The notes: generated by a model from the letters alone, not told the origin. DNA of 64,000 bases from an uncultured Candidatus Saccharibacteria bacterium (GCA_964357605.1 CAYHLX010000001.1:5159-69158), one strand, 5' to 3'; counted from the first letter of the stretch, positions 5,633 through 31,395 are shown. A program made the numbers and translations.

Positions 5633-5651
5633 TAATGTTACAATTACTTCT

Positions 5652-8060
5652 ATGAACTTAGCGACGAAACACTTAACCATCCCTATCCTGGCTATTGTTA
5701 TCCTCCTCACCATCCTTTTCAACCTCGGAGGAACAGAAAAAGATATCTCTACATATTTACCACCTGCTCCCACTCAAACTGCAGCTGTTTCAGATTTCAA
5801 TTCTTCCCTCGTTGCTCACTATACTTTTGATGGTAATACCAACGACTCCGCTGGTTCTAACAATGGGACAGCAGTAGGTGGGCCGACGTATACCACAGGC
5901 AAAATTGGACAAGGACTCAGCTTCGATGGGACAGATGACAAAGTTACGACCTCAGATCTCGGTACTCTAGGATCGTCAGTCTCATTGTCATATTGGTTCA
6001 AAACCACAGATGGGCCAAATTCAGCCATGGTGGGCATCGGCACAAAAAAATATTGCAGTATCGATTGGAGTCCTGCAGGATCATTTGCCTGTACTGTCCA
6101 TGGCGGAGGTGGTGCACTTTCGAGTGGCCAGGCATTCAATGATGGAACATGGCATCATGGAGTGTTTGTTATGACAGAGAATAGTCAACTTATCTATATT
6201 GATGGCGTATTGAAAAATTCATCAAACGGAGAATTACCAGCAGATACTTCGTCCGCTGTTCTTATGGGAGATCGAGCTTTTGGCGGTACACCCTATTCCG
6301 GCGCTCTTGATGATGTACGAATATATAACAAAGCTCTTTCCGCTAATGAAATTCAACAATTGTACACTTTTAATAATGAAAGTACGCCAATAGTAACTCC
6401 GACACCGGATACAAATTCAAATCCAAATCCGACACCACCTCCGACTACAAATCCCGTGCCAGCACCAACCGAACCAATTTCTGTAGACAGCAAACATTAT
6501 TATGTGCGTCCTGATGGCGGAAATTATGGCAACGAAGATGGATCAAGTTGGGCTAATGCCTTTGACGGATTCAATGATGTTGTGTGGGGAAATAATACTG
6601 GCCAGGTCGGTGCAGGAGATGTCCTGTATGTGAGTGCCGGTAACTATTATCAACCACTTATTGTCGGTATATCAGGTGTTTCTGGAAATAGAGTGACAGT
6701 TCGCGCCGCGCAAGATACATATGTTGGAATTGCAAATCTTAATTCCACATCAGCAATAAGTTATGGAGGCAATGCTTATGTAACTATTGATGGAGGTTAC
6801 AATGGAAATAACCATTTTGTAACCACTACATATATTAATGGACAGGGTACTATAGACCCAGGTTTACATTATTTTACCATTAACAAAAATCTTGCCGATT
6901 TTAGATATTCAAGCAAAGGAGAATTTTCGTATAACATTGTTAATATTGTCGATTCAACTGCAGAAACGGCATTTTACTTCACTGCGTCAAAGAATCGTGA
7001 TGCCCCCTCGTTTGGATTATCAAAGTTCCATCATAATAAAATTATAGTACCAGGGAAGATAAATGACGGTAATGGTCCTGACGGTATTCATGCCGGAACA
7101 GGATTTGACATATACAACAACATTTTTCAATCAGTATTATGGACTCCCGGTTCGCTCATAGGTCATAACCACCAGGATCTCATACAGGCTTATGGAGATG
7201 AGCATTTGAGAATTTACAACAATGAATTTATTGACTCTGGTGATTCTCAAATTGATTTCTCTAAAGCAGGAAATGTAACGCAATCTAATTTACTTGTTTA
7301 TAATAACGTCTTTCGAAGGACTATTGCTGAAATGGGTACGGTCATGTTGAGGATATATACAGAAGGCGGGGGAAGCATCTCTTCGTTTAATAATATTATG
7401 ATTGACAATAACACGTTTATAGATGGATCTAGAACAGGTCCTTCCTATGGCGGAGGTATTCGCGTTATTAATACAGACACAGCTACCGGGGCTTCTAATG
7501 CGACAATACGAAATAATATTTTCTACAATTCTGGTCGCGCGTGGCCAGTCGTGTTGATGGAGGGTATATCACCAAACTGGACTGTGTCAAATAATCTAAT
7601 CAACGCTGGATCATCTGGTAATGCAACTATACAGTGGACAGGTATAAATCCTGTAGGCACGCAAACTACCGCACCTAATTTTGTAGGTTATGTTCCATAT
7701 GCGTTAAGTATGGATTTACATTTGAGAAACATGGATAGTGCCGCTATCAATAAAGGAGTCAATCTTTCCTCCCACTTTTCCACAGACAAAGACGGCAACC
7801 ATCGCAATGTTGGCGGTGCCTGGGACATCGGCGCCTACGAATACCAAGGAAGCGGGACAACTCAACCACCAGTCACCCCACCAGTAACACCCACCACCTA
7901 CAAACCAGGCGACTTCAACAGAGATGGAGCAGTCAATGCCCTAGACTTCTCCCTATTGTCAGGTGCCTGGAATACCAATACCTCTACATATGATCTAAAC
8001 AGTGATGGTATTGTGAACTCTCTCGACTACGTGATCATGGTGCAGAATTGGACGGGGTAG
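5652..8060 (+). CDS. Secreted LamG domain - PT-rich linker - right-handed parallel beta-helix (pectate-lyase-like) - C-terminal type I dockerin protein
   Basis: Start re-set to ATG 5652 (MNLATKHLTIPILAIVILL..., a signal/TM segment). The track ORF start at 5496 overlaps the previous gene. LamG motif 'LDDVRIYNKALSANEIQQLY' is followed by a TPTPDTNSNPNPTPPPTTNPVPAPT linker. Repeated NN(I/V)F/YNN.F motifs at beta-helix spacing. The C-terminus 'DFNRDGAVNALDFSLL...DLNSDGIVNSLDYVIMVQNW' is two DxNxDGxVNxxD calcium-loop repeats, i.e. a dockerin. Confidence 0.75.
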   Translation: MNLATKHLTIPILAIVILLTILFNLGGTEKDISTYLPPAPTQTAAVSDFNSSLVAHYTFDGNTNDSAGSNNGTAVGGPTYTTGKIGQGLSFDGTDDKVTTSDLGTLGSSVSLSYWFKTTDGPNSAMVGIGTKKYCSIDWSPAGSFACTVHGGGGALSSGQAFNDGTWHHGVFVMTENSQLIYIDGVLKNSSNGELPADTSSAVLMGDRAFGGTPYSGALDDVRIYNKALSANEIQQLYTFNNESTPIVTPTPDTNSNPNPTPPPTTNPVPAPTEPISVDSKHYYVRPDGGNYGNEDGSSWANAFDGFNDVVWGNNTGQVGAGDVLYVSAGNYYQPLIVGISGVSGNRVTVRAAQDTYVGIANLNSTSAISYGGNAYVTIDGGYNGNNHFVTTTYINGQGTIDPGLHYFTINKNLADFRYSSKGEFSYNIVNIVDSTAETAFYFTASKNRDAPSFGLSKFHHNKIIVPGKINDGNGPDGIHAGTGFDIYNNIFQSVLWTPGSLIGHNHQDLIQAYGDEHLRIYNNEFIDSGDSQIDFSKAGNVTQSNLLVYNNVFRRTIAEMGTVMLRIYTEGGGSISSFNNIMIDNNTFIDGSRTGPSYGGGIRVINTDTATGASNATIRNNIFYNSGRAWPVVLMEGISPNWTVSNNLINAGSSGNATIQWTGINPVGTQTTAPNFVGYVPYALSMDLHLRNMDSAAINKGVNLSSHFSTDKDGNHRNVGGAWDIGAYEYQGSGTTQPPVTPPVTPTTYKPGDFNRDGAVNALDFSLLSGAWNTNTSTYDLNSDGIVNSLDYVIMVQNWTG

Positions 8061-9599: not shown

Positions 9600-11990
9600 A
9601 TGAACCCCAAGAAATACGTGCTACTCTCTGCACTTGTAGCTGTTATCATTCTCACCATCCTCTTCAACCTCGGAGATATTACATCCAAGGAGATTGTCCA
9701 GTATATCCCACCTATTACCTCCCAATCCCAAACAGCCGCAGTGTCTGACTTCAACTCTAGTTTAGTAGCTCACTATACATTTGATGACACTACCAACGAT
9801 TCTGCAGGATCTAACCACGGTACAGCTGTAGGTGGACCGACGTATACTACTGGCAAGATCGGGAGGGGCTTACAATTTAACAATGATGGTGCGTTTAATA
9901 GCCCGATGCATGTTGTCAGTTCATCTGTTTCCCTCAGCTCTGACTGGTCCGTGTCCTTTTGGGTTTTAAGGATTTCAAATGTCGGGGCGGCTCAATATGC
10001 CGTTTCAATGACTGATGCTACAGGTATACTTGTAAAAGATAGTAGTGGCATTAATAATTGGGGATTTTTTGATGGCACAACAGTTTTAAATGGGTCGGCA
10101 CAGATACCAATACAGAGCTGGACTTTCATAACTGTTACGAAATCGGGAACTACTTATACCCTTTATATAAATGGAGCTTCTGATACTTCTGGTACACTTA
10201 ATGATGTAGATATAAGTAGAATAATGATAGGAGTTAGGTCATCTAATTTTCTTGGGATGCACGGAACACTTGATGACGTTCGCATATATGATCGTGCATT
10301 GAGTGCTGGAGAAGTAAGTCAACTCCATACACTTGGTAGTGGAGGAACTGTCATAGCACCGGATCCAACCCCCACTTCTCAACCAATACCAGTTCCAGAT
10401 CCAGTAGTAGTCACTCCACCTCCAGTTCAACAACAAGTACCACCACCTGTAGTATCTGGTTCGCAAACATACTATATAGACTATGTCTCAGGCAACAATG
10501 CGAACAACGGTACCTCAAAGACTACTCCTTGGAAGGTTCATCCATTCATGAAAGGTTTTACTGGTAGCTATTCACACAAGGCAGGAGACAGATTCATTTT
10601 TAAAGGTGGTGTGACGTGGCCAAACTCATCATTTCAGATGAATATTACCGCCGGTGGAAGCAGTGACAGTGTGCGTGACTATTATGGTGTTGACAAGACT
10701 TGGTATGCCGGTTCCTCGTGGGCTAGACCGGTGTTTGATTTTGAGAATACCCTTATATCCGGTGGCGGTTTTAATTCGGTCGGCCTCCTGATTAATAGTG
10801 CAAACTATATCACAATTGATGAAATAGATTTTGCTAGATACAGAACACCGGCGGTAGGAGCGGGCGACTATGGTTCAGGTACATTAGTCCTCATCGGTTC
10901 ATCCAGTAATATCACCATACAAAATTGTATTGTCCGCGACTGGTCAAATGGTGGTGGTGCCGATGGTGGTTCTGGCGGAGGTATCTGGTCATTTTCAAGT
11001 GGTAGTGGAAACAAAGTCTTGCATTGCATCTTTCATGGCTTTAATACCAATATAAAAGGAGGACGTGCATTATCATTTTATGGTGAGATCGGTTTCAATG
11101 AAGCATATGATTTGAGCACTTTCCTTATGGGTGGAGGCGATGTTCATGATAATTATGTACATAATATGAAAGGTGCCACAGACCCGAATAATCATGAAAA
11201 CGCCTTTTATATAATGGGTGTCAGCAAATTGTACAATAATCTTCTACATGACATTGATCCGGGTAGCTCTTCGTATTATCTAGAACCAGGTTTCTCCAGT
11301 CCATCGGGTACAACAATGGTCTATAATAATGTCGCTTTTAATGTTGGAAATGATGCCCCGATTTCAATCGAGACTGATGGACAGTACGCAGCTTCACAGA
11401 ATATAAAAATTTTCAATAACACTGTTGAACATGGAGTAGGTAATTGTATCCGAACTGTATTGCGCGGAAGCCAACATATTGGCTCGCTTGAAGTCGCTAA
11501 TAATCATTGTATAACTACTGGACCAGCCAAGGATTTTCCTACAGCGACAGTTACAACTCTTACGGACCGGGGTACCGACATAGTTCAGACTCATGCTCAG
11601 GCCGCGTCATCTGGTGCGACTCCTACAAATCGTTACCGGCCGACGTCTGCCAGTTCTCCTGCGATCAATGTTGGGCTATCGCTTCCTAGTTACTTCACGT
11701 CTGACAAATTAGGAGTCGTCCGTCCCCAAAGTACGGTATGGGATGTAGGCGCCTACGAATACCAAGGAAGCGGAACAAATCCTCCTGTAGTCACTCCCCC
11801 CATCACCCCACCAGTAACACCCCCAACCTACAAACCCGGCGACTTCAACAGAGACGGAGCAGTCAATGCCCTAGACTTCTCACTCTTGTCAGGTGCCTGG
11901 AATACCAATACCTCTACATATGATCTAAACAGTGATGGTATTGTGAATACTCTAGACTACGTCATCATGGTGCAGAATTGGACGGGGTAG
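9600..11990 (+). CDS. Secreted LamG - PT/PV linker - beta-helix - dockerin protein (paralog of 5652..8060)
   Basis: N-terminal 'ILTILFNLGDITSKEI...QSQTAAVSDFNSSLVAHYTFDDTTNDSAGSNHGTAVGGPTYTTGKIG' is near-identical to its paralogs. Also 'LDDVRIYDRALSAGEVSQLH', a PVPDPVVVTPPPVQQQVPPPV linker, NN-rich beta-helix repeats, and a C-terminal dockerin 'YKPGDFNRDGAVNALDFSLLSGAWNTNTSTYDLNSDGIVNTLDYVIMVQNWTG'. Confidence 0.75.
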   Translation: MNPKKYVLLSALVAVIILTILFNLGDITSKEIVQYIPPITSQSQTAAVSDFNSSLVAHYTFDDTTNDSAGSNHGTAVGGPTYTTGKIGRGLQFNNDGAFNSPMHVVSSSVSLSSDWSVSFWVLRISNVGAAQYAVSMTDATGILVKDSSGINNWGFFDGTTVLNGSAQIPIQSWTFITVTKSGTTYTLYINGASDTSGTLNDVDISRIMIGVRSSNFLGMHGTLDDVRIYDRALSAGEVSQLHTLGSGGTVIAPDPTPTSQPIPVPDPVVVTPPPVQQQVPPPVVSGSQTYYIDYVSGNNANNGTSKTTPWKVHPFMKGFTGSYSHKAGDRFIFKGGVTWPNSSFQMNITAGGSSDSVRDYYGVDKTWYAGSSWARPVFDFENTLISGGGFNSVGLLINSANYITIDEIDFARYRTPAVGAGDYGSGTLVLIGSSSNITIQNCIVRDWSNGGGADGGSGGGIWSFSSGSGNKVLHCIFHGFNTNIKGGRALSFYGEIGFNEAYDLSTFLMGGGDVHDNYVHNMKGATDPNNHENAFYIMGVSKLYNNLLHDIDPGSSSYYLEPGFSSPSGTTMVYNNVAFNVGNDAPISIETDGQYAASQNIKIFNNTVEHGVGNCIRTVLRGSQHIGSLEVANNHCITTGPAKDFPTATVTTLTDRGTDIVQTHAQAASSGATPTNRYRPTSASSPAINVGLSLPSYFTSDKLGVVRPQSTVWDVGAYEYQGSGTNPPVVTPPITPPVTPPTYKPGDFNRDGAVNALDFSLLSGAWNTNTSTYDLNSDGIVNTLDYVIMVQNWTG

Positions 11991-12006
11991 ATGGGGTAAA
12001 CAGCCA

Positions 12007-12048: not shown

Positions 12049-12052
12049 ACTT

Positions 12053-12074: not shown

Positions 12075-12120
12075 AACTAATGTTGATAAGTTACAGATGG
12101 AATAGTGTATAATAACACCC

Positions 12121-15100
12121 ATGGCCCACCCAAAGACACTTCACAGCATCATCGCACTCATAGCCTGTGCAGGTATCATATTAGCAATTATATTTAGCAC
12201 TAACTCATCACCTGACTCTGTCTCTCTCACCCTCTCACCAGAGAGTAGATCAACTCCAGTCGGAGAAACATTCACTATAGACATAGTCCTCAATACCGCC
12301 AAACAAACAGTATACGGAGTAGACATCAATCGACTACGCTTTGATCCTCGTATTCTAGAGGTAGTTGATATAGATACAGCTACACCAGGAACACAAATAA
12401 CAGCTGGCTCCCTCATGGACGCTACAGTCTTCAACTCTGCTGACAATACTCTCGGTACTATACAGTTCTCTCAAGTCATGACTCCAGGTACCAGTGGAAC
12501 TAACTCATTTACTGGCTCTGGTACTCTCGCTACCGTCACCTTCAAGGTAGTAGCTGAAGGTAAATCAGACATATTCATTGACTTTACCCCTGGCTCAAGT
12601 ACAGCTTCAAATGTCGCTGGACAATCAGGCAATCTCCTATCAGTAGTCAATGGTGGATCATACAAGGGTACACGATCACTTCTCTCAACTATCACTTCTC
12701 AATCTCAAATGGCTGCTGTGGCTGACTTTAACTCTAGTCTCGTTGCTCACTATACTTTTGATGGTAATACCAATGACGGAGCTGGTTCTAACAATGGGAC
12801 TGCAAGTGGTGGACCGACGTATACTACAGGCAAAATTGGACAAGGGCTCAGTCTTGACGGTAGCGATGACAAGATAACTTTTACCGCATTCAATGTACCT
12901 TCAAGCTTTACCATATCAACATGGGTCAACCCTGGGTCAAGTCAATCAAGAGATTGGTCGCAGATTCTAGGGGAAGTTAATACGGGCAGTGGGTTACATT
13001 ATAAAAGAGGGGCAAATAAAATTTCCTATTATTTTTCTGGAGGTGATCATTTGACTAACGGATCTCTAAATGCGGGTCAGTGGCACCATGTTGCTTTGGT
13101 TCAAAACTCTGGTAATTATACGTTTTATATAAATGGTTCTGCTGATGCGAGTGGTACAGGAGGTGTGAGTTTCAATCCTTACATCATAGGTCACAATCAC
13201 TGGGGCGAAACATTTGCCGGTTCACTGGATGACATGCGCATCTACAATCGCGCGCTTGACTCGAGTGAAGTGAGTCAACTCTACGCTCTCGGCAGTGGAG
13301 GTGGTACACCCGCGCCAACACCGGATCCTACGCCTACTCCGATACCAGATCCGACACCAACGCCCAGTCCGACAACCTGTTCTTCCTTTACTTACTCCAG
13401 TTGGGGTACGTGCACAAATAGTACCCAAAGTCGTACCGTGACTTCTTCTTCACCTACTGGTTGTACTGGCGGATCACCGATAACTACTCAGTCTTGTGTG
13501 GTTACAACACCTACTCCGACACCACCTGTAGTAACACCAACACCTTCGCCAATTCCTGGAAACACGACATGTCAGGCAATCAATGGTCATAAGTGCTGGT
13601 ATGTAAATTCTTCAGCGACAGGGTTAAATAATGGTACATCTTGGCAAGATGCATGGAGAAGCTTTGCAGATGTTCAGTTAAAAAATCCCTACCGTGCGTG
13701 CGGCGCGCCTACAGGATGCCTCAATTCTGGGGATACACTCTATATTTCGGGCGGCCCTAGCGGATCCAGCAGAACTTATTCAGGTATTTCTTATACATCC
13801 CCTCAGGGAGTAGGATTTGTTTTTGATGTTGGCCATGAGGAAACTGCAAGGTATGCTACAACTCGTGCAGATGGGATTAAAATAAGGCCAGGACAAGATG
13901 CCGGGCACAATGGCAAAGTGATAATTGATGCCGGAGGGCAGGTAGGAATTGGAGCAAATAATTCTCAATATGTCACAATTGATGGGGAATATAATGGTCA
14001 GAGAAATATCGTTATCAGAAATTCATCTGCCGGAATTACCGTCGTTTCAAGTAATGATGCAATAATTCGCTACGTTGAGATTGATAACGTCTCTTCTATA
14101 GCCATATCGGCAGGACAAACACAAAGAGGAGGTGAAATAGCATACAATTATATCCATCAAGTTCGTGGCGAAGCGGCGATCAACTGCAATGGCACAAACA
14201 ATGAACAAGGAAGTCCCAATCATGGCTATGATAAGATGTTGATTCATCACAATGAAATTCAGCTCAATCGCTGGGATCCCAGTCTGGAACCTTCCAGGAA
14301 TGCTGCAGCTGATGGAATTGGTCCTGATGGAATACAGGGTTGCTATGGCCTGAGCTTCTATAACAATTACATTTATCACAAGCCGGGAATGCTCGCGCCA
14401 CGTTCACAGCATCCGGACATGATCCAATCCGGTGGGGCATACTTGAAAGTATATAATAACGTTTTTGAGAATATGACAGATTCTGCAGTGGATTTTGACT
14501 CACCTTTTGTTGGAAAGGTTAGAATATTCAACAACATATTTAAGTCAACACTCTATACAGGTATACCAAGCGGCATTCGCATGTATTCTTCTGGCACATG
14601 GGGTCCTTTTACAAGCCTAGATGATGTTTATATTCTCAACAATCTTTTTGTTGATACTGGTTATTCTGAACGGGGAGGAAGTCCGATAGGTTTTGGCGCA
14701 GGTTCTGTAACGGCATCAAATATTCACATACTCAACAATATATTCTACAACTCAGGGCATAGTAATTATGGGTCACTCATTAATTCGGCAGCTTCTTCTG
14801 GATTTACTCATTCTGATTTTGATATAGGATACAATCTTGTTGATGCTGGATTGCATGGCACGACTAATATCATTCTTGATGGCACTGCCTTTACACAGCA
14901 TCATCCTCTGAGCGGAAAACCTGCTTGGGTTTCGTATAGTGAAGCTTCACCATCTAATAATTTTAAATTAACGGGATCTGATACATTTGCAATCGATAAG
15001 GGAACAAACTTAACAAACTTGTGCAGTGTGATTGGTCTATCTGAGCTTTGCGCTGACGCAGAAAATAAACCGAGACCTTCTGTCGGAGCATGGGAAATAG

Positions 15101-16401
15101 GAACATACGAATACAACGGCTCTGGCGGAACGCCGACTCCACCTCCAGTAACGCCACCGCCACCGCCACCGCCTTCACCTTTATCCACTTACTACGTTTC
15201 TCCTTCAGGCAATGATTCAAACGCGGGAACATCAGCATCACCATTCCGTACTATCCAAAAAGCCGCTAACATAGTTATTCCTGGAGATACAGTCGTCGTT
15301 AGAAATGGAACATATACTGATACGGATGGAAATAATATCATAGCAACCATCGGTAGGGGCGGTGCGGCTGGAGCACCAGTAACTTTCCGTTCGGAAAATC
15401 CTTTCGGTGCCATATTGAGTGGAAACAATACTGCCGGATTCGGATTTATTTTTGGAAATAATATCAACTATGTCAACATAGAAGGATTTGAAATTAAAGA
15501 TATTGTTGAGGCAGGGATCAACATCAACGAATCAAATTCATATATTACTATTAAGGATAATCGTATTCACCACATTGGTCACATTCAGACACACACACTA
15601 TACGGCATGAGTTGTATTGATGTGGGAAGTAGGGCTCATCATATTACTGTTGCAGGCAATACTATTTATTCCTGCGGAAGGCTGAACCCAAATAATACAA
15701 ACCTTGAAATTCTGGACTCAACCTGTATTACGCCGGTTGGCTATGTCTTTCCTGGAAATGGCATCACATATTCAAAGGAAAACACTTGCTACAACCATGA
15801 TCATGGCATATATGTAAGAGGTGATGATATCAATATTACTAACAATACATTCTACGATATGAAATCTGGTTGGGGAGTGCATGTATATGATGATGCGGCT
15901 CTAAAAGAGCGTATTACTATCACTGGCAACACATTTGCAGATGCCAATCCACAAAGAAACGGCCAGATCATTATCGGTCCACAGACAAGCAATCTGCGTA
16001 TCGAAAGTAATATTTTCTACAATCCATCAGTCTCTGCCATCAGGCTCGGAGACACTTGTGCTGCAGCCGGTCTCACCAGTATCACTATACAGAACAACTC
16101 AACCAACATCGGAGATCTCATCTCAGGAGCCGACGTATCATGCGGGTATACTATCTCCGGCAATCTTCTCAATCAAAATTTCCAATTTGCAAATGAAGCA
16201 GGAAGAGATTATCGTCTCATATCCGGCCAACCTATCGTCAACAAACCAGGCGACTTCAACAGAGACGGAGCAGTCAATGCCCTAGACTTCTCACTCTTGT
16301 CAGGTGCCTGGAATACCAATACCTCTACATATGATCTAAACAGTGATGGTATTGTGAATACTCTAGACTATGTGATCATGGTGCAAAATTGGACGGGGTA
16401 G
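12121..16401 (+). CDS. Giant surface protein: N-terminal cohesin-like domain, LamG domain, PT linkers, Cys-containing module, two right-handed beta-helix regions, C-terminal dockerin
   Basis: Residues about 30-180 ('VSLTLSPESRSTPVGETFTIDIVLNTAKQTVYGVDINRLRFDP...GTIQFSQV...GSGTLATVTFKVVAEGKSDIFIDF') have cohesin-like beta-sandwich features. They are homologous to the N-terminal domains of 21969..23327, 23367..25040 and 25101..25808. LamG 'LDDMRIYNRALDSSEVSQLY'. 'SPFRTIQKAANIVIPGDTVVVRNGTY' is a typical beta-helix cap. The dockerin tail is identical to that of 9600..11990. Confidence 0.7.
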   Translation: MAHPKTLHSIIALIACAGIILAIIFSTNSSPDSVSLTLSPESRSTPVGETFTIDIVLNTAKQTVYGVDINRLRFDPRILEVVDIDTATPGTQITAGSLMDATVFNSADNTLGTIQFSQVMTPGTSGTNSFTGSGTLATVTFKVVAEGKSDIFIDFTPGSSTASNVAGQSGNLLSVVNGGSYKGTRSLLSTITSQSQMAAVADFNSSLVAHYTFDGNTNDGAGSNNGTASGGPTYTTGKIGQGLSLDGSDDKITFTAFNVPSSFTISTWVNPGSSQSRDWSQILGEVNTGSGLHYKRGANKISYYFSGGDHLTNGSLNAGQWHHVALVQNSGNYTFYINGSADASGTGGVSFNPYIIGHNHWGETFAGSLDDMRIYNRALDSSEVSQLYALGSGGGTPAPTPDPTPTPIPDPTPTPSPTTCSSFTYSSWGTCTNSTQSRTVTSSSPTGCTGGSPITTQSCVVTTPTPTPPVVTPTPSPIPGNTTCQAINGHKCWYVNSSATGLNNGTSWQDAWRSFADVQLKNPYRACGAPTGCLNSGDTLYISGGPSGSSRTYSGISYTSPQGVGFVFDVGHEETARYATTRADGIKIRPGQDAGHNGKVIIDAGGQVGIGANNSQYVTIDGEYNGQRNIVIRNSSAGITVVSSNDAIIRYVEIDNVSSIAISAGQTQRGGEIAYNYIHQVRGEAAINCNGTNNEQGSPNHGYDKMLIHHNEIQLNRWDPSLEPSRNAAADGIGPDGIQGCYGLSFYNNYIYHKPGMLAPRSQHPDMIQSGGAYLKVYNNVFENMTDSAVDFDSPFVGKVRIFNNIFKSTLYTGIPSGIRMYSSGTWGPFTSLDDVYILNNLFVDTGYSERGGSPIGFGAGSVTASNIHILNNIFYNSGHSNYGSLINSAASSGFTHSDFDIGYNLVDAGLHGTTNIILDGTAFTQHHPLSGKPAWVSYSEASPSNNFKLTGSDTFAIDKGTNLTNLCSVIGLSELCADAENKPRPSVGAWEIGTYEYNGSGGTPTPPPVTPPPPPPPSPLSTYYVSPSGNDSNAGTSASPFRTIQKAANIVIPGDTVVVRNGTYTDTDGNNIIATIGRGGAAGAPVTFRSENPFGAILSGNNTAGFGFIFGNNINYVNIEGFEIKDIVEAGININESNSYITIKDNRIHHIGHIQTHTLYGMSCIDVGSRAHHITVAGNTIYSCGRLNPNNTNLEILDSTCITPVGYVFPGNGITYSKENTCYNHDHGIYVRGDDINITNNTFYDMKSGWGVHVYDDAALKERITITGNTFADANPQRNGQIIIGPQTSNLRIESNIFYNPSVSAIRLGDTCAAAGLTSITIQNNSTNIGDLISGADVSCGYTISGNLLNQNFQFANEAGRDYRLISGQPIVNKPGDFNRDGAVNALDFSLLSGAWNTNTSTYDLNSDGIVNTLDYVIMVQNWTG
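16377..16401 (+). repeat. Direct repeat copy 1 (the dockerin-gene 3' end catggtgcaaaattggacggggtag) flanking the ATPase gene
   Basis: 24/25 identical to 17743..17767. The two copies bracket the AAA ATPase gene 16532..17725. Confidence 0.7.
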
Positions 16402-17837: not shown

Positions 17838-20420
17838 ATGAATCTCACCAAAAAACATCTCATAGTAGCGGGGCTTACTATTATTATCATCCTTACCATC
17901 CTCTTTAATCTTGGAGATATTACATCCAAGGAGATTGCACAGTATATCCCACCAAGTAGCTCACAATCCCAGACTGCCGCCGTTTCTGACTTCATCGTCC
18001 ACAATACATTTGATACAGGGACTGTGACCGGTGCTATCGGCCAGGCCACAACATTTGATGGGATTGATGATTATGTGACACTGAGTTCGAGTGGTGTGCC
18101 AGTGGGCAAACAGCCGGTGACTGTGTCGGCTTGGGTCAAGCTTGCTGGTTCTCCTTCTGCTGATAGCAGGATTGTTTTTCGCGGAGAGAGGTATTCGTCA
18201 TCAGATTTTATATTTTTTGATCTAGCTCTCGAAGGGGCAGGACACAATGTGCCGACATTTACCATGATGGGTACCGGAGGAGGAGGTTCACACTACAAGG
18301 CAACTTCAGGAACAGGACTTTCAGCCGGACAGTGGTACCACCTGGTTGGCGTTTCCGATGGAGGAGGCGCAGTGACTGTATATGTAAACAATACTCCTAC
18401 TACCGGAAGCCATATTGATTTCGATGGTCACGATGGAACACCATACGCACCGTCCGTAGGCGCACGGTTGCAAGGCTCCGCGGATTCTTTCTTTGCCGGT
18501 TCGATCGACGACGTTCGTATTTACAACCGCGCACTTGACTCGAGTGAAGTGAGCCAACTCTACGCGCTCGGCAGTGGAGGTGGTACGCCCGCGCCAACGC
18601 CGGATCCTACACCAACCCCGACACCGGATCCAACACCGACACCTTCTGCAGTCAACGGTCAATGTGGTGTAACTGAGAATATTTGTATTCAAGGTACTCT
18701 CAATAATACTGCTGACTCTACTACCAATTATCTTTGGCAATGTACCGGTGCAAATGGTGGCGCAACGGGTTCATGTTCTATTGCAAAACCAGTAAACACC
18801 ATAGTGACCCCACCATCCACTCCAGATCCAGTTACCTTTACAGCACCACCTGTAGTATCCGGTTCGCAAACATACTATATAGACTATGTCTCAGGTAACA
18901 ATGCCAACAACGGCACTTCAAAAAACACCCCATGGAAGGTTCATCCATACATGAAAGGTTTTACCGGAAGCTATTCACACAAGGCTGGAGACAGATTTAT
19001 TTTCAAGGGAGGTGTAACGTGGCCACACTCTGCATTTCAGATGAATATTGCCGCTGGCGGAAGCAGTGACAGTGCGCGTGACTATTATGGTGCTGACAAA
19101 ACTTGGTATGCCGGTTCATCTTGGACCAGACCAGTTTTTGATTTTGAAAACAAAGTCGTAGCACCGGATGCATGGGGTGGAGCAGAGTCAGCAGGGTTGC
19201 TTCTCAGGGATGTTCACTACATCACTCTCGACAATCTGGAGCTGATCCGTTTCCGTCAAAGATTGTTTGAAAAGAATTCCGGCAAGGCTGACCCCGGATT
19301 TGCGGTGGATAATATCACTATACAAGGATCCGCATCCAATATTACACTGCAAAACAGCATTGTGCGTGATTGGACTATACCTACACCCATACCGGCGGGC
19401 TATATAGATGGCGGGGCATCAGGAGGGGTTATCGTTAATGCTTGGTCTGGCGGAGGCACGGGTATAAAAATCCTTAACAATGAATTTCATCAGCAGAATA
19501 CAGGAATCAGATCTGGGGTAGCACTCTATTTGGGTGGAGAGATTGCCTATAACACTATCCACCATGTGTCAGATGCTATCGTCGGTGGTGGTAACGTTCA
19601 TGACAATCTGATCTACAACGTCGAGGATGCCACCTGTCCGGAATTACACGAAGATGTGATCTATATCACATCACCTTCAACGGTTTACAACAACGTTGTC
19701 TATGAAGCTACTGCCGCCGCTCCCGTCTATTACCTTGAACCGAGTCGTTCCGCATCCACTGGAACAACATTGGTGTATAACAATATTTCCTATAATACCG
19801 GGTATGCACCTCTCAGTATAGACATTAGTCAGCCTGAAGGTGTCAATCACGTGATAAAAGTTTACAACAACAGTTTTCATTCCGAAAGTTCTTCGGTGGT
19901 ACGCGTGGTGGATCGTGTCGGTTTACCATTGGGTGTATTGGATATGAAGAATAATCACTTTATTTTCAATGGACAATTCCTCAATATTCCTGCTGGCACA
20001 GTCCTAGACTTTAAGAATACAAATAATATTTTCCACACAGAGTCCGAAGCTGCCCAGTTCGGGGCAACAAGGGCCAACCTATTCAAATTTACTTCGTCTA
20101 ATGCACCAATGATAAACGCCGGTGTAAGTTTGTCGACATTTTTTGCGACTGACAGGCTCGGTGTTGCTCGTCCACAAGGCGGAGCTTGGGATATTGGCGC
20201 CTACGAATATGGTGGAAGCGGAGGATCTGTATGGTCACCACCGCCACCAGCACCAGTTTACAAGCAAGGTGATTTCAACAGGGATGGGCTAGTCAATTCT
20301 CTAGATCTTTCTCTGCTCACATCTGTTTGGAATCAAAATAGTGCCTCATACGATCTGAATTCTGATGGTATCGTAAATAGCTTGGATTATGTGGTTATGA
20401 TTCAGAACTGGACATCGTAA
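17838..20420 (+). CDS. Secreted LamG-like - PT linker - Cys module - beta-helix - dockerin protein (divergent paralog)
   Basis: Same N-terminal leader ('IIILTILFNLGDITSKEIAQYIPPSSSQSQTAAVSDF'). 'IDDVRIYNRALDSSEVSQLYALGSGGGTPAPTPDPTPTPTPDPTPTPS' is near-identical to 12121..16401. The beta-helix core is homologous to 9600..11990 ('SGSQTYYIDYVSGNNANNGTSK.TPWKVHP(F/Y)MKGFTGSYSHKAGDRFIFKGGVTWP'). The dockerin is a variant: 'DFNRDGLVNSLDLSLL...DLNSDGIVNSLDYVVMIQNWTS'. Confidence 0.7.
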   Translation: MNLTKKHLIVAGLTIIIILTILFNLGDITSKEIAQYIPPSSSQSQTAAVSDFIVHNTFDTGTVTGAIGQATTFDGIDDYVTLSSSGVPVGKQPVTVSAWVKLAGSPSADSRIVFRGERYSSSDFIFFDLALEGAGHNVPTFTMMGTGGGGSHYKATSGTGLSAGQWYHLVGVSDGGGAVTVYVNNTPTTGSHIDFDGHDGTPYAPSVGARLQGSADSFFAGSIDDVRIYNRALDSSEVSQLYALGSGGGTPAPTPDPTPTPTPDPTPTPSAVNGQCGVTENICIQGTLNNTADSTTNYLWQCTGANGGATGSCSIAKPVNTIVTPPSTPDPVTFTAPPVVSGSQTYYIDYVSGNNANNGTSKNTPWKVHPYMKGFTGSYSHKAGDRFIFKGGVTWPHSAFQMNIAAGGSSDSARDYYGADKTWYAGSSWTRPVFDFENKVVAPDAWGGAESAGLLLRDVHYITLDNLELIRFRQRLFEKNSGKADPGFAVDNITIQGSASNITLQNSIVRDWTIPTPIPAGYIDGGASGGVIVNAWSGGGTGIKILNNEFHQQNTGIRSGVALYLGGEIAYNTIHHVSDAIVGGGNVHDNLIYNVEDATCPELHEDVIYITSPSTVYNNVVYEATAAAPVYYLEPSRSASTGTTLVYNNISYNTGYAPLSIDISQPEGVNHVIKVYNNSFHSESSSVVRVVDRVGLPLGVLDMKNNHFIFNGQFLNIPAGTVLDFKNTNNIFHTESEAAQFGATRANLFKFTSSNAPMINAGVSLSTFFATDRLGVARPQGGAWDIGAYEYGGSGGSVWSPPPPAPVYKQGDFNRDGLVNSLDLSLLTSVWNQNSASYDLNSDGIVNSLDYVVMIQNWTS

Positions 20421-21004: not shown

Positions 21005-21907
21005 ATGATTGTTATGAGACATAAAAACTATGCTCAAGCTTTTACCCTAATAGAGATATTGGTGGTTATATCTATCTTGGGATTATTAGCATCTATAGTT
21101 TTTGCTGTGATCAGACAGGCTCGTGAAAGAGGAGTGATAGCCGGGGGAATTATTTTTGCAACTCATACACAACATACCGTCGGTGATCAAGGGGCGATAT
21201 ATTTTGATTTTGGTGCACCATCTGACTTGGATGCAGATCCCGACACAGAAGAAGTGGCAGATACGTCCGGCAACAGTCTTCACGGTACTCTGATGGGTAA
21301 TTCTCCGAGTAATCCGATGGTAAGTCCTACATCGTATTCTCCAGAGGCAGGTAGTTCTCTCAGTCTTAATACCCAATCTGGGATACCGACTCAGTATGTA
21401 AGCGTCGGGTCAAGTCCTGCTCTTGAAAGTGAGAAGCTGATTCTTTCGGCGTGGGTAAAGTCTCCGCCAGTACCTCATCTTTCACAGTTTATAAAAACAG
21501 TTGTTTCATACCATCCAGTGTATATTCTTTTTTTGGACTTGCGTCGCCATAGGGTGAGCGTTTGCACTACTCCTCATAGATTATATAGCGGTCCTCCCGG
21601 ATCATGTCTGTCGTCAGAAATAATATCTATTGATCCAGTTGATGATAAATGGCACAACATAATAGTATCAATTGATTCAGGGGTGCCAAATGGCTCGAAG
21701 ATATATTATGACGGACGTTTGATCGCACAGGGGCTATTTAATATGGCGGCAGTTCCTTCTGGTTGTGAACCCATATTGAGTATTGGTAAGGTAGAGGCGG
21801 CATGTGGTATTCCGTCTTTTGCATATCCAGATAATACTTACCCTAATATGTTTACAGGTCAACTAGATGACGTTCGAGTATACACCACTTCCTTGCCTGT
21901 AAACTGA
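21005..21907 (+). CDS. Type IV pilin-like protein with C-terminal LamG-type domain
   Basis: 'AFTLIEILVVISILGLLASIVFAVIRQARERG' is a prepilin-type N-terminal helix (Ala instead of Gly at -1). C-terminal 'LDDVRVYTTSLPVN'. Confidence 0.6.
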   Translation: MIVMRHKNYAQAFTLIEILVVISILGLLASIVFAVIRQARERGVIAGGIIFATHTQHTVGDQGAIYFDFGAPSDLDADPDTEEVADTSGNSLHGTLMGNSPSNPMVSPTSYSPEAGSSLSLNTQSGIPTQYVSVGSSPALESEKLILSAWVKSPPVPHLSQFIKTVVSYHPVYILFLDLRRHRVSVCTTPHRLYSGPPGSCLSSEIISIDPVDDKWHNIIVSIDSGVPNGSKIYYDGRLIAQGLFNMAAVPSGCEPILSIGKVEAACGIPSFAYPDNTYPNMFTGQLDDVRVYTTSLPVN

Positions 21908-21968: not shown

Positions 21969-23327
21969 ATGAAATCCAAAATAATAAAAGCAGTGTATGT
22001 CTTCGCTCTGCTCTATGCTCTACCATCTTTAGTTTCGGCGGCGACACTATCTATTTCGCCTGCGACGAGCTCTGTTGTTGTCGGTAGTGATTTTTCTGTT
22101 GACATCTTGCTCGATACCGAAGGTGTACCAGTAGATGGAGTCGATATTATATATCTCAACTATAACCCTTCACAAATCCAGATACAGGATGCCAATACTT
22201 CTCTTGCTGGGATCCAGATCACTCCTGGCACGCTCATGTCATCAACGTTGGTGAATACTACCAATGAAAGTTCGGGCAGAGTAACTTTTTCTCAAGTATC
22301 AACGGGTGGTACTCGGTATAATGGTTCAGGTACCCTGGCTTCAATTTCTTTTAAAGCACTGACTACTGGTACGGCTAGTCTTGTTTTCAACTTCACTCCA
22401 GGACTCACCACAGATTCCAATGTCGCTTCAAATCAGATCGATATATTGGATACTGTCACCAATGGTTCTTATGTAATAAATTCCCCCCCACCTCCACCTC
22501 CTTCATCTCCACCACCTAGTACACCACCAGCATCTTCTGGTGGTGGCGGTGGTGGTGGTTCTTCAAGTTCTGGTGGCGGCGGAGGAAGTCCAGCACCAGT
22601 TATAGTACCAGCAACGAGTATTACTACAGTCAGTAATTCTGGTGGAGTAAATCAGGTGACTATATATGTCCCGCTAAATATCACACGTTGGCTCACTGTT
22701 GGATCAACCGGTCAGGATGTCCTTCAACTTCACAAAGCCCTCAATCAAAACGGTTTTGCTGTTGCGACAAATGGTGCCGAATCGCTCAATAAGGAAACAA
22801 CTTATTTTGGGCCAGCGACGGCCGCCGCGATCAGAAAATTTCAATGTGCCAAATTGCAGGTCTGCCAGGGCACACCTGAAACAACTGGATATGGTGGTGT
22901 CGGACCGAGAACGCGTCAGGCCCTGTCTCTTTTGAAAATTGCCTCAGTTTCTTCTGTTACGGTCTCAACTGCATCAACAACGGCGCTTACTTCAGTTCCG
23001 GGTTGTCCAGCCGGTTTTATTTGTAGATTGGCTAGTGCCACATCAACTTCGTCATTGCCAACAATACAATATTATTCAACCACCACTCTTCCGGTATTTA
23101 CACGCAACCTCACTTTGGGAGCCGTCGGCGCAGATGTCAAATCTCTGCAGATATATCTCAATTCACGTGGATTCACCATCGCCACGTCTGGTGGTGGATC
23201 CCCAGGCTATGAGACCATGTATTTTGGTCAAGCTACTCAGTCAGCCTTGGTTCGTTTCCAAAGATCAAATGGCATTGTTCCAGCGTCCGGTTTCTTCGGA
23301 CCTTTGACCAGGGGATATATCAAGTAA
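21969..23327 (+). CDS. Cohesin-like domain protein with Pro/Gly-rich linker and two peptidoglycan-binding (PG_binding_1-like) domains; putative cell-wall-anchoring scaffoldin
   Basis: Signal peptide. Cohesin-like module 'LSISPATSSVVVGSDFSVDILLDTEGVPVDGVDIIYLNYNPSQIQI...GRVTFSQVSTGG..GSGTLASISFKAL'. A PPPPPPSSPPPSTPPASSGGGGGGGSSSSGGGGG linker. Two modules 'LTVGSTGQDVLQLHKALNQNGF...YFGPATAAAIRKFQ' and 'LTLGAVGADVKSLQIYLNSRGF...YFGQATQSALVRFQRSNGIVPASGFFGPLTRGYI' fit the PG-binding three-helix domain pattern. Confidence 0.65.
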   Translation: MKSKIIKAVYVFALLYALPSLVSAATLSISPATSSVVVGSDFSVDILLDTEGVPVDGVDIIYLNYNPSQIQIQDANTSLAGIQITPGTLMSSTLVNTTNESSGRVTFSQVSTGGTRYNGSGTLASISFKALTTGTASLVFNFTPGLTTDSNVASNQIDILDTVTNGSYVINSPPPPPPSSPPPSTPPASSGGGGGGGSSSSGGGGGSPAPVIVPATSITTVSNSGGVNQVTIYVPLNITRWLTVGSTGQDVLQLHKALNQNGFAVATNGAESLNKETTYFGPATAAAIRKFQCAKLQVCQGTPETTGYGGVGPRTRQALSLLKIASVSSVTVSTASTTALTSVPGCPAGFICRLASATSTSSLPTIQYYSTTTLPVFTRNLTLGAVGADVKSLQIYLNSRGFTIATSGGGSPGYETMYFGQATQSALVRFQRSNGIVPASGFFGPLTRGYIK

Positions 23328-23366
23328 TACGTTTTTGTTTATTAGAAAAGAAGGTATAATGATCTC

Positions 23367-25040
23367 ATGAATCAAACATTAAAAACTTCACACGGTATTG
23401 CGATCCTTGCAATATTATTGATTGTTTCCATAATCTACATCGTAAAAACGGGTAATCAAACTGATGGTATCGCCAAATTTGTTCAACCACAAAGTCAGTT
23501 GGCGCAGGTGACCTCCGCCACGACCCTGTCACTCACCACCGCATCTCCCACTACAGTTGGGAGTACATTTACCGTAAATATTACCCTCAATACCGGTGGG
23601 CGAGCTGTATATGGTGTTGACATCAATCGTTTTCGATTTAACCCTGCCATGCTCCAGGTTGTAGATGCCAACACGGGGACAGCTGGTGTACAGGTTGCCC
23701 CAGGATCTCTCATGGCTATTAGTATCATAAATACTGTAGATAACAGTGCCGGCACAGTCCAATTTTCACAAGTTGCAAATCCAGGGTCTACATTCACTGG
23801 TATAGGTACGGTGGCTTCTGTTACTTTCCGTGTTTTGGCCGTAGGTACGTCAAACGTGACCATTGATTTTAGTCAAGGTAGCGGTACGGATTCTAACGTG
23901 GCCGGACTGGGAGGAGATATACTCACTTCGGTGACAGGAGGTTCATATACGGGTACAGCTGTAGTGGTTGTGCCACCTACACCTCCAGCAGACACAACCG
24001 CCCCTACTATTTCCAACGTTACTTTTTCGGGACTTTCGACTACTGGTATCACCATCGCCTGGACTACTGCCAATGAAAATTCCAATACCCAAGTAGAATA
24101 TGGATTGACAAGTAGTTACGGATCACAGACGGCATTGAATGCATCACTCACATCCGCACATACAGCCACTCTCTCCGGCCTCTCACCAGGCACAGCCCAT
24201 CACTATCGTGTCAGATCTCGCGATGCGGCTGGAAATCTGGCTGTATCTACAGATAATATTTTTACAACCTTGGCGGCGGCTGATAGTACAGCACCTACAG
24301 TGCCTTCCGGTGTTACGGCTACAGCCACAGGGGAGACACAGATCCAATTGTCCTGGACAGCTTCTACTGATCCTGCTGGTACTGGACAAAACGTTTCTGG
24401 TGTCGCAAGATACCAAGTTTTTCGTGGGGGAACACTTCTAGGTACTGCGCCATCGACTGCGTATCTAGATACGGGATTGACTGCGGCGACGGCGTATAGC
24501 TATAGAATAAGTGCTGTTGATACGGCTGGCAATATATCTGGACAATCTACAGCGGTGAGTGCTACGACACGATCAGCTTCTGTTGTAGATATTCCGCTTC
24601 AACGCAAAATAATTTTGTCACTAGAGGGAGCTACAAATACTGGCAAGGCTGTTTCTGGAGTCATCGAGTTTCTAGATCCTGTCACGAGGGCCAAAATATA
24701 TCAGGCAAATATTGTCACCGATGCTTCTGGTCAGTACGTCATGAATATTCCGGCAGGGCTTGTGGCAACTGTTGTGCTACGCCCAAAGATCCCTGGCTAT
24801 ATCTCAAAACTGATCACGGATGTAGATCTGAGAAATACTGCCATACTCGAGGTCAATTCGCCGGTATTACGAGCGGGTGATTTCAATGGTGATCAGATCG
24901 TCAATTCTCTAGACTTCTCATATATGAATAGCAAATGGGGTGCGGCGGCTGATGCCCTGGCTGATATAAACAGGGATGGAGGCGTGAACTCCATAGACTT
25001 TTCATATTTGTCTAGCAACTGGTTAGCGACAGGAGAGTAA
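23367..25040 (+). CDS. Cohesin-like domain - two fibronectin type III domains - C-terminal dockerin; putative adaptor scaffoldin
   Basis: The N-terminal module is homologous to the N-terminus of 12121..16401 ('YGVDINRFRFNPAMLQVVDANTGTAG...GTVQFSQVANPGSTFTGIGTVASVTFRV'). Two FN3-like repeats ('APTISNVTFSGLSTTGITIAWTT...HHYRVRSRDAAGN'; 'APTVPSGVTATATGETQIQLSWTAS...YSYRISAVDTAGN'). C-terminal 'GDFNGDQIVNSLDFSYM...DINRDGGVNSIDFSYLSSNW' is two dockerin calcium-binding repeats. Confidence 0.65.
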   Translation: MNQTLKTSHGIAILAILLIVSIIYIVKTGNQTDGIAKFVQPQSQLAQVTSATTLSLTTASPTTVGSTFTVNITLNTGGRAVYGVDINRFRFNPAMLQVVDANTGTAGVQVAPGSLMAISIINTVDNSAGTVQFSQVANPGSTFTGIGTVASVTFRVLAVGTSNVTIDFSQGSGTDSNVAGLGGDILTSVTGGSYTGTAVVVVPPTPPADTTAPTISNVTFSGLSTTGITIAWTTANENSNTQVEYGLTSSYGSQTALNASLTSAHTATLSGLSPGTAHHYRVRSRDAAGNLAVSTDNIFTTLAAADSTAPTVPSGVTATATGETQIQLSWTASTDPAGTGQNVSGVARYQVFRGGTLLGTAPSTAYLDTGLTAATAYSYRISAVDTAGNISGQSTAVSATTRSASVVDIPLQRKIILSLEGATNTGKAVSGVIEFLDPVTRAKIYQANIVTDASGQYVMNIPAGLVATVVLRPKIPGYISKLITDVDLRNTAILEVNSPVLRAGDFNGDQIVNSLDFSYMNSKWGAAADALADINRDGGVNSIDFSYLSSNWLATGE

Positions 25041-25100
25041 AAGGATGTTAAAATTATTCAACATAATAGCAATAAATTTAAAAGCGCACATTATCAATTT

Positions 25101-25808
25101 ATGAAATCAACATCGATGAAAAATTTTATCCCAGTGCTTGTAGCAGTATTTGTTATACCTTCGCTCGCATCCGCGGCGACATTGTCGGTCTCGCCCTCAT
25201 CTCACACAGTCAAGGCGGGGGATACATTCTCTGTATCTGTGCGTCTTGATACCCAAGGTGATTCTATTGACGGCGTAGATTTGAGATATCTCAATTACAA
25301 TTCTAGTTTGTTACAGGTTTTGGATGCGGATGTAGCCAAGTCGGGCACACAGATCACTCCTGGCACTCTGATGCCCATGACTCTTTTGAATAATGTGGAT
25401 CAGGCTTCTGGTAAAATTTCTTTTTCACAGGTTAGTGCTGGAGGAACAAAATATAAGGGTTCAGGTACCCTGGCGACGATTTCGTTCAAGGCCCTGGCTT
25501 CTGGCAGTACACAACTCACATTCAACCATACACCGAGCAACACCACTGACTCCAATGTGGCCATGGCTGGAAAAGATACACTGAGTGCAGTCATAAACGG
25601 ATCAATTACTATTGGTGGGGTGGGGGTGGTGGCACCAACTTCAATATCGTCAGAATCACGAAACTCAGATGGTTCTTTTGTGCCTTTACCAGAAGGAGAT
25701 TCTGATGAATCAATTGAAAGCCCTAAGTCACAGGGATCTTTTTGGAATGCGATAGATTATGTATTTGGTCGCATTGCAAAGGGTTTTATGAGAATTTTCG
25801 GAAGATAA
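25101..25808 (+). CDS. Secreted cohesin-like domain protein
   Basis: Signal peptide. 'LSVSPSSHTVKAGDTFSVSVRLDTQGDSIDGVDLRYLNYNSSLLQVLDAD...GKISFSQVSAGGTKYKGSGTLATISFKAL' is homologous to the cohesin-like module of 21969..23327. Confidence 0.6.
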   Translation: MKSTSMKNFIPVLVAVFVIPSLASAATLSVSPSSHTVKAGDTFSVSVRLDTQGDSIDGVDLRYLNYNSSLLQVLDADVAKSGTQITPGTLMPMTLLNNVDQASGKISFSQVSAGGTKYKGSGTLATISFKALASGSTQLTFNHTPSNTTDSNVAMAGKDTLSAVINGSITIGGVGVVAPTSISSESRNSDGSFVPLPEGDSDESIESPKSQGSFWNAIDYVFGRIAKGFMRIFGR

Positions 25809-31385: not shown

Positions 31386-31395
31386 ATCTATACCC

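Follow-up and report, generated by a model that had tools for sequence, protein, structure and literature searches.

In Clostridium thermocellum the scaffoldin CipA, which carries type I cohesins, an X-module and a type II dockerin, is held on the type II cohesins of the SLH-anchored proteins SdbA, Orf2p and OlpB (PMC5817068). Ruminococcus flavefaciens employs a single-cohesin anchor: the type III cohesin of sortase-anchored ScaE receives the X-module and dockerin (X-Doc) of the adaptor ScaB. Here we present an analysis of three neighbouring genes, A, B and C, at positions 21969-25808 of a 64,000-nucleotide stretch of DNA (GCA_964357605.1, CAYHLX010000001.1:5159-69158; the whole stretch is called the window) from a Patescibacteria metagenome-assembled genome (MAG). 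An earlier note, made from the sequence alone, had read these genes as anchors and adaptors of a cellulosome-like surface assembly. We propose that the locus encodes a two-tier, non-cellulolytic cohesin-dockerin scaffold which would display surface proteins on the peptidoglycan of a Patescibacteria (Parcubacteria/Paceibacteria-like) cell, and which would share the two-tier logic of CipA and its anchors. We lean towards this reading by a modest degree, because every binding step in it is one that we infer.

The three open reading frames (ORFs) lie on the plus strand, separated by gaps of 39 and 60 nt; their coordinates agree exactly with the earlier note. Gene A (21969..23327, +; 452 aa; translation, Pfam, BLASTP) encodes a putative anchor protein. 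Its Sec signal peptide (aa 1-24, cleavage between VSA and ATLS) is followed by a cohesin (aa 25-170, 22041-22478), a linker of Pro, Gly and Ser, a first PG_binding_1 domain (aa 240-322, 22686-22934), a spacer with Cys and a second PG_binding_1 domain (aa 379-451, 23103-23321). Gene B (23367..25040, +; 557 aa; Pfam, BLASTP, AlphaFold2 model) encodes the putative adaptor. It starts with a hydrophobic helix (aa 7-28) and a spacer carrying the motif SQLAQV; then come a cohesin (aa 53-195, 23523-23951), two FN3 domains (aa 207-300, 23985-24266, and aa 305-396, 24279-24554), an X-like β-sandwich (aa 410-497, 24594-24857) and a dockerin (aa 501-557, 24867-25037). Gene C (25101..25808, +; 235 aa; Pfam, fold search) codes for a second protein with an anchor-type cohesin. 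It consists of a Sec signal peptide (aa 1-25, cleavage between ASA and ATLS), the cohesin (aa 26-171, 25176-25613), a low-complexity tail and a conserved, amphipathic C-terminal helix (aa 218-234, 25752-25802). A scan of 20.3-26.4 kb yielded no convincing terminators between A, B and C, the counts being about those expected for shuffled DNA, and the sole strong promoter-like site in this region (position 25840, 11/12 matches) lies 3' of C. The scan fits a predicted co-transcription of the three genes, without being proof.

At their N-termini A, B and C have modules which BLASTP shows to be pairwise homologous, with identities of 40-54% and E-values from 1e-32 to 1e-59. A fourth homologous module forms the N-terminus of the protein encoded at 12121-16401; all four share 38-54% identity (BLASTP; E 1e-31 to 1e-59). 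The gathering score of the Pfam Cohesin family (PF00963), 24.1 bits, is passed by C (41.6 bits) and by the 12121 protein (43.5 bits). A scores 20.2 bits, which is below the gathering score. B, queried alone against Pfam, returned no Cohesin match; a PF00963 match is precomputed on a 98%-identical homologue of B. A phmmer search of C against PDB sequences gave no match. An AlphaFold2 model of C, built from an alignment of 54 sequences, has predicted local distance difference test (pLDDT) values of 92-98 in the cohesin region. When this model was compared with the PDB by Foldseek the top 50 matches were all cohesins, with types I, II and III represented. They are headed by 6kgd_A (E 1.2e-8, TM-score 0.77, root-mean-square deviation 2.6 Å); others are 1aoh, a CipA cohesin, 2b59 and 3ghp of type II, and 2zf9 of type III. 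5n5p and the cohesin-like module 2jh2 from C. perfringens are matched as well. Because all of these top 50 fold matches are cohesins, the modules are, judged by sequence and predicted fold, cohesins and not generic immunoglobulin (Ig) domains, an alternative which the earlier note had considered. A and B are counted as cohesins despite their shortfall in Pfam because they are homologous to the modules of C and of the 12121 protein, and because of the fold result. BLASTP, Pfam for C and the fold search thus agree with the original view that the modules are mutually homologous and cohesin-like. As such they would be expected to bind dockerins in a calcium-dependent manner.

The dockerin of B scores 34.2 bits against Dockerin_1 (PF00404; Pfam threshold 22.9 bits), and the two FN3 domains match fn3 with an E-value of 9.8e-14. 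The calcium loops are DFNGDQIVNSLD and DINRDGGVNSID. In both loops positions 1, 3, 5, 9 and 12 are calcium-ligand positions, and the residues D505, N507, D509, N513, D516, D533, N535, D537, N541 and D544 are invariant or kept in at least 90% of 54 adaptor homologues. The designation of such C-terminal repeats as dockerins was therefore justified: they pass the Dockerin_1 threshold, and the ligands are kept in the homologues. Further, a mixed family profile reaches the solved dockerins 1daq and 2mte of C. thermocellum (E about 4e-3). The description of B as a cohesin with two FN3 domains and a dockerin stands by Pfam, yet needs correction on two points. Position 6 of the first loop is Q, not G, and a conserved β-sandwich of about 90 aa between the second FN3 domain and the dockerin had been overlooked. 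The AlphaFold2 model of B (mean pLDDT 84.9, predicted TM-score, pTM, 0.36) is an extended string of bead-like domains: the helix 7-28, the cohesin 52-197, two FN3 domains, the β-sandwich 411-498 and short helices at 514-522 and 542-549, as a dockerin would have. A pTM of 0.36 indicates that the domains have no fixed arrangement relative to one another. The β-sandwich, termed X module here, is weakly similar to CarboxypepD_reg; 10/18 members match, the best with E 6e-5 and all below threshold, and against the PDB no significant match emerged. For these two reasons we do not claim homology to clostridial X modules.

Two stretches of A match PG_binding_1 (PF01471; 65.3 bits against a threshold of 23, E 5.9e-18), and the arrangement of cohesin, Pro/Gly linker and two peptidoglycan-binding domains which had been proposed for A is confirmed. 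A family profile reaches the solved structure 4xxt via its PG_binding_1 part (E 3.2e-4). PF01471 is listed as a peptidoglycan-binding wall module (PMC5817068), and as a member of this family A would bind peptidoglycan. Neither an LPXTG motif nor a sortase signal was seen in A or C. Protein C had been taken for a stand-alone cohesin; it is a cohesin indeed, but it also has a tail of 60 aa which ends in the conserved amphipathic helix. The helix is conserved at loci L006 and L011, and the homologue at locus L010 has a true transmembrane helix in its place. Because the orthologues of C keep the amphipathic helix and the L010 counterpart has a transmembrane helix, these comparisons suggest that C is a second socket, held at the membrane by its predicted C-terminal helix. 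Among the homologues the anchor-type cohesin is variously fused to one to three PG_binding_1 domains, to a transmembrane or amphipathic helix or to other C-terminal domains.

The resemblance to C. thermocellum is close in layout and remote in components. In both, a β-sandwich directly precedes the dockerin of the adaptor, the anchor combines a cohesin with a wall module that is non-covalent (predicted so here), and the cohesins form two clades, as the dockerins, which split less cleanly here, may also do. The wall module is PG_binding_1 here and SLH there. The proteins of this locus carry one cohesin each instead of nine, and FN3 spacers take the place of CBM3. The X module here is weakly similar to CarboxypepD_reg and is not shown to be homologous to the clostridial X modules; adaptor and cargo have an unusual N-terminal helix with a QLAQV-type motif; the cargo consists of LamG and β-helix proteins where C. 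thermocellum has glycoside hydrolases; and the organism belongs to the Patescibacteria. ScaE and ScaB of R. flavefaciens pair a single-cohesin anchor with an X-Doc adaptor, as is proposed for this locus, and 2zf9 and 5n5p are among the fold matches of C. Unlike ScaE, A and C lack a sortase signal, and their attachment is predicted to be non-covalent, via PG_binding_1 or a C-terminal helix.

The gene neighbourhood is conserved. From look-ups and a scan of species-representative genomes 14 distinct loci were obtained and scanned with hidden Markov models built from our own alignments. The adaptor gene adjoins an anchor-type cohesin gene in 13/14 loci. The adaptor has the order cohesin, FN3(n), X-Doc in 10 loci; at L008 it is without FN3, at L010 without the X module, and at L015 only cohesin and FN3 were detected. 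Its partner is a cohesin-PG_binding_1 protein in seven loci, counting L016 where the anchor gene is split by masked bases. The cohesin partner at L011, L014, L015 and L017 differs in its C-terminal region, or has no such region detected in the available DNA. Exceptional are L012, with no adaptor in its 15 kb, L018, the contig of which ends at the anchor gene, and L019, in which the modules are fused. The commonest gene order is cargo with dockerin, adaptor, anchor, and the genomic contexts outside this module differ from locus to locus. That homologous islands occur in related genomes, a point which the earlier note had proposed to check, is evident from these loci.

All 14 loci are titled Patescibacteria with the exception of one short contig labelled Omnitrophota. 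This is L015 (DOMD01000086.1, 3.6 kb, from a MAG), which could be a binning error or a true spread beyond the phylum. Named sources of relatives are Candidatus Zambryskibacteria, Azambacteria, Doudnabacteria, Paceibacterota and the Parcubacteria group. The cohesin-PG_binding_1 architecture makes up about 30 clusters at 90% identity and occurs in 41/134 further representatives at 50% identity; the same homologue search contained 344 representatives at E 1e-30 or better. Among the best 120 homologues of B, 62 have the order cohesin, FN3(n), X-Doc. Two or three cohesins are present in the multi-cohesin relatives P0225 and P0276. At L019 a single protein of 1930 aa (5174-10963) combines FN3-FN3-dockerin-FN3-cohesin-PG_binding_1. 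At L006, the sister locus with 86% identity to A, two overlapping ORFs (11630-13491) make up the split orthologue of B, the result of a frameshift or an assembly error.

Aligning the cohesins of these proteins discloses two clades. Those of the adaptors and the 12121 protein segregate from those of the PG_binding_1 and stand-alone proteins with a neighbour-joining bootstrap of 99/100; identity is 62-63% inside the clades and 47% between them. The dockerins divide, less cleanly, into X-Doc and cargo types (59-67% identity inside, 44% between) with a bootstrap of 87/100 when the intermediate sequence L009_6830 is left out. The consensus helices of X-Doc dockerins, DFSYMNxKW and DFAYLSNNW, are internally symmetric; those of cargo dockerins are DxSLLxxxW and DYVIMVQNW. 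In the lineage of L010, L015 and L019 the cohesins form one group and the dockerins form one group; cohesin and dockerin classes therefore vary together in number. By analogy to type I and type II systems such a pattern would be expected of matched sockets and plugs; it is not evidence of binding.

The scaffold which we propose would be assembled as follows. A would be exported via Sec with cleavage of its signal peptide, and its two PG_binding_1 domains would grip peptidoglycan non-covalently, leaving the anchor-type cohesin exposed. C would present a second anchor-type cohesin, its C-terminal helix probably keeping it at the membrane. The X module and dockerin of B would plug into an anchor-type cohesin, with the two FN3 domains as a spacer, and B would in turn offer its adaptor-type cohesin. 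Into this the cargo-type dockerins of LamG and β-helix proteins encoded upstream would plug. The 12121-16401 protein, with its adaptor-type cohesin and cargo-type dockerin, could extend or branch the assembly. The output is likely to be a modular adhesive or glycan-binding layer with lectin-like cargo, plausibly for contact with other cells or polymers. Provided that every class of dockerin has one class of cohesin as its partner, two wirings can be envisaged. In the first, the anchor cohesin would take up X-Doc and the adaptor cohesin the dockerins of the cargo, so that A and B would be direct partners; this corresponds to the CipA/SdbA logic as summarised in PMC5817068. In the second the pairing is reversed, which would require a linker of the 12121 type between A and B. 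We favour the first wiring because the adjacency of A and B is widely kept and a 12121-type protein is, among the 14 loci, present only here and in the sister locus L006.

Several points weigh against this scaffold. The support for the dockerin split drops to 17/100 when all sequences, L009_6830 included, are used. The favoured pairing would allow the 12121 protein to polymerise with itself. At L012 a gene with a cargo-type dockerin adjoins the cohesin-PG_binding_1 gene, with no adaptor in 15 kb, and therefore cargo may also dock straight onto anchors. None of the six clade-discriminating cohesin positions (0/6) falls into the canonical dockerin-binding strands 8-3-6-5, by a rough DSSP strand assignment. 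Lastly, B and the cargo proteins may be membrane-tethered, which fits poorly with a simple chain of wall, adaptor and cargo.

The outcome for the specificity positions would suit a different explanation, namely that the modules are real yet unpaired. The cohesin-like modules would then be Ig-like structural elements or spacers, the dockerin-like ones calcium-binding, stabilising or glycan-binding units, and the clustering would reflect a surface-protein island only. To our knowledge many non-cellulosomal dockerins have no known cohesin partner. Elsewhere, non-cellulosomal dockerins have been read as adhesins (PMC10066038, citing Peer et al. 2009). We judge this explanation improbable in view of three observations: cohesin and dockerin genes adjoin in nearly all fetched loci despite differing genomic contexts; cohesins and dockerins split in parallel, with a single clade of each in the same lineage; and the calcium ligands and helix residues are strongly conserved.

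The possible tethering of B and cargo derives from their N-termini. The anchor proteins possess textbook Sec signal peptides with A-x-A immediately before ATLS. In adaptors and cargo, which have no canonical cleavable signal peptide, a long hydrophobic helix comes first and leads into a spacer of 10-25 residues (helix plus spacer at 23367-23520, 9600-9760, 17838-18000 and 5652-5800). Just before the first folded domain the spacer carries a conserved motif, which is (S/T)QLAQV for adaptors and, for the cargo of this locus, SQTAAV. The helix in adaptor and cargo homologues often lacks a positively charged n-region. In many adaptor homologues the N-termini are just weakly hydrophobic, e.g., MQTLQQIVSSLTAILIALQ. 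Such an N-terminus could serve as an anchor that is not cleaved, or as a signal for sorting or processing of a kind not yet described. Because B and cargo start with a long hydrophobic helix and no canonical signal peptide, their topology may differ from that of a classical scaffoldin.

A reversed topology, in which the locus would tether the cell to a host, is a rival explanation. B would be a membrane stalk held by its N-terminal helix, its distal X-Doc would capture the cohesin of secreted A, and the PG_binding_1 domains of A would fasten on the peptidoglycan of a different cell (a host or prey) and not of the cell itself, such that the membrane of the symbiont is bridged to the wall of its host. 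The predicted helix of B (22 residues, aa 7-28) has no signal-peptidase motif nearby; A, with its canonical cleavable signal peptide and without membrane anchor, would be free to diffuse; and the extended model of B (pTM 0.36) probably has the length needed to span a thin wall. The source, a 0.1-µm groundwater fraction, and type IV pilin-like genes in the window would be in keeping with it. Yet the first wall that a secreted PG_binding_1 protein would meet is that of its own cell, the weakly hydrophobic N-termini of many adaptor homologues (MQTLQQIVSSLTAILIALQ is one) resemble an unusual leader more than a transmembrane anchor, and nothing identifies a host. We regard a host tether as unlikely. 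An episymbiotic lifestyle, which the earlier note thought probable, is at most consistent with the origin of the DNA: it stems from a Patescibacteria MAG of the 0.1-µm groundwater fraction. The exact protein A is also encoded on an ENA contig from Hainich groundwater, of that fraction, and on an NCBI contig of 75.6 kb.

The putative cargo of the proposed scaffold is encoded upstream. Four proteins combine LamG with a C-terminal Dockerin_1 domain (37-40 bits in Pfam). Three are LamG-dockerin proteins at 5652..8060, 9600..11990 (796 aa) and 17838..20420 (860 aa), all on the plus strand and assigned by Pfam. For the first the listed ORF begins at TTG 5496; ATG 5652, past the stop of the preceding gene at 5632, is the likelier start. 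The fourth is the 12121 protein (12121..16401, +; 1426 aa), with an adaptor-type cohesin (aa 38-161), LamG, a right-handed β-helix/DUF1565 region and a cargo-type dockerin; by its predicted domains it is socket and plug in one. The four dockerin-bearing LamG/β-helix proteins had been placed directly upstream of A. They are present, but not directly adjacent: a PsbP-like gene (20433-20981) lies between the 17838 gene and A, and directly 5' of A is a gene for a type IV pilin-like protein with an N_methyl motif and LamG but no dockerin (21005..21907, +). Similarly, the complementary modules do share one island, as had been noticed, although it is interrupted by an AbiEii toxin gene (8750-9289, with an unannotated partner upstream; region 8134-9289) and by a gene for an AAA_14/DUF4143 ATPase (16532-17725), and one of the dockerin proteins also carries a cohesin. 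Both genes may be insertions into the island. The ATPase gene sits in a dip of G+C content (0.362 at 16-18 kb).

Is this then a genuine cellulosome that degrades cellulose or plant polysaccharide? Such machinery has been proposed in the published view for Saccharibacteria (bioRxiv 10.1101/211649) and Microgenomates (bioRxiv 10.1101/2021.08.21.457207), as far as the available parts of these reports go. When compared with PDB sequences, the cargo matches LamG/CBM-like modules of clostridial proteins (4qvs, 5hon), which would agree with it. Other matches are brief: endoglucanase H of C. thermocellum is matched weakly in its linker region (E about 5e-5), and 44-54 residues match the N-termini of rhamnogalacturonan lyase 5olq and xylosidase 3vst. 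The β-helix/DUF1565 region of the 12121 protein is weakly similar to the N-terminus of 5olq (E 3.8e-7, 54 residues), again a point in its favour. Against this, the dockerin proteins of the window consist, apart from their dockerins and the one cohesin, of LamG, β-helix/DUF1565 and unassigned regions; B adds its FN3 domains. Glycoside hydrolases, carbohydrate esterases and cellulose-binding (CBM3-like) domains were not detected in them by Pfam, and seven neighbouring dockerin or cohesin proteins scanned at other loci proved to have FN3, dockerin or cohesin domains and no hydrolase or cellulose-binding domain; these searches covered the window and the fetched flanks of the other loci. Further, there is one cohesin per protein, and the cargo is LamG or FN3. 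Dockerin-bearing degrading enzymes and a multi-cohesin scaffoldin with a CBM, the marks of a cellulosome sensu stricto, are absent at this locus. The reading as a classical cellulosome was rejected for want of hydrolase or CBM cargo, and we consider it very unlikely that the locus degrades cellulose. Its description as non-cellulolytic in the earlier note is upheld.

The presence of cohesins and dockerins in the Candidate Phyla Radiation (CPR) is already known. A two-subunit cellulosome has been reported for the Saccharibacterium T. rhizospherense (bioRxiv 10.1101/211649), and proteomics has detected cohesin and dockerin proteins of the Microgenomates Ca. Shapirobacterales (bioRxiv 10.1101/2021.08.21.457207, where Ca. 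Roizmanbacterium is cited too). In the accessible portions of these two sources the genes belong to CPR/Patescibacteria genomes, groundwater lineages among them, as they do here. In those portions they are interpreted as cellulose-degrading machinery, the lineages are Microgenomates and Saccharibacteria in place of the Parcubacteria/Paceibacteria-like homologues of this locus, and nothing is said of a PG_binding_1 anchor, of an adaptor with FN3 and X-Doc or of a division into two specificity classes. Non-cellulosomal cohesins and dockerins (survey of Peer et al. 2009 as related in PMC10066038; 2jh2) likewise show no link to cellulose breakdown; as far as that secondary account goes they are scattered single modules, unlike the conserved, syntenic and hierarchical set with a dedicated wall anchor described here. 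In giant proteins of Omnitrophota non-cellulosomal dockerins were read as adhesins (PMC10066038). In Southlakia epibionticum, a cultivated epibiotic Saccharibacterium, the dockerin-domain protein SEML1_0315 and the FN3 protein SEML1_0890 are essential envelope proteins, the former in co-culture, for which the authors proposed host-glycan targeting (PMC10633639). Compared by domain type, this epibiotic Patescibacterium has surface proteins with dockerin and FN3 domains as the present locus does; the difference is that neither a cohesin partner nor a wall anchor is described there. A full-text literature search, with most subscription journals outside its coverage and thus weak as evidence, returned no description of a PG_binding_1-anchored cohesin or of a conserved adaptor-anchor pair. 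Accordingly, the PG_binding_1 anchor and the conserved two-tier module are the parts for which we found no earlier description.

How the ultra-small CPR/Patescibacteria cells attach to their partners is largely unknown, and large surface proteins that lack annotation abound in their genomes. If the proposed scaffold exists, a plug-and-socket model with a peptidoglycan anchor, an adaptor and swappable lectin-like cargo would explain how such surface proteins are organised, and it could be probed with recombinant modules. For the cellulosome field PG_binding_1 would be a third solution to wall attachment, beside SLH and sortase, and a natural two-tier system would have been built from single-cohesin components far outside the Firmicutes. 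At the same time the locus is a caution against labelling cohesin and dockerin genes of the CPR as machinery for cellulose degradation. Presently, we can only speculate on a wider generality. Many Parcubacteria/Paceibacteria-type Patescibacteria might possess a modular 'adhesosome', i.e., a cohesin socket in the wall (PG_binding_1) or membrane, an FN3-X-Doc adaptor and interchangeable dockerin-tagged lectin-like proteins as an exchangeable surface for recognising and holding partners, in which the N-terminal helix with the QLAQV-type motif would be a dedicated sorting or processing signal. This is a tentative idea that deserves some credence, and we would sooner expect it to fail than to hold.

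The remainder of the window has several features of its own. Further LamG-only proteins fill positions 16-5632. Type IV pilin-like proteins are encoded at 16-849, 21005-21907, 31378-32283 and, on the minus strand, 34388-34987. Those at 21005-21907 and 31378-32283 are fusions of N_methyl and LamG; the LamG protein at 16-849, cut at the start of the window, has a pilin-like hydrophobic N-terminus and no N_methyl match; for the protein at 34388-34987 the N_methyl motif alone is recorded. Together these proteins suggest that pilins tipped with a lectin exist beside the dockerin-tagged LamG proteins. A surface protein at 45415-46827 combines PG_binding_1 with PKD, and a separate PKD protein is encoded at 42476-43516. 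On account of the PG_binding_1-PKD protein, PG_binding_1 seems to be a general wall-anchoring module, as predicted, in this genome. In relatives PG_binding_1 is fused to FN3, proteases and β-helix proteins.

Other genes of the window are ordinary chromosomal ones such as those for DnaE, GyrB, ribosomal proteins, tRNA synthetases and Tgt. A diversity-generating retroelement is located at 50975-53548. Its variable repeat (51621-51724) lies at the 3' end of an ORF at 50975-51736 (253 aa, no Pfam match); the template repeat (52016-52119) and an RVT_1 reverse transcriptase gene (52556-53548) follow. The two 104-nt copies of the repeat are 82% identical, and, as we read the alignment, all 19 mismatches are at adenines of the template copy, the hallmark of such elements.

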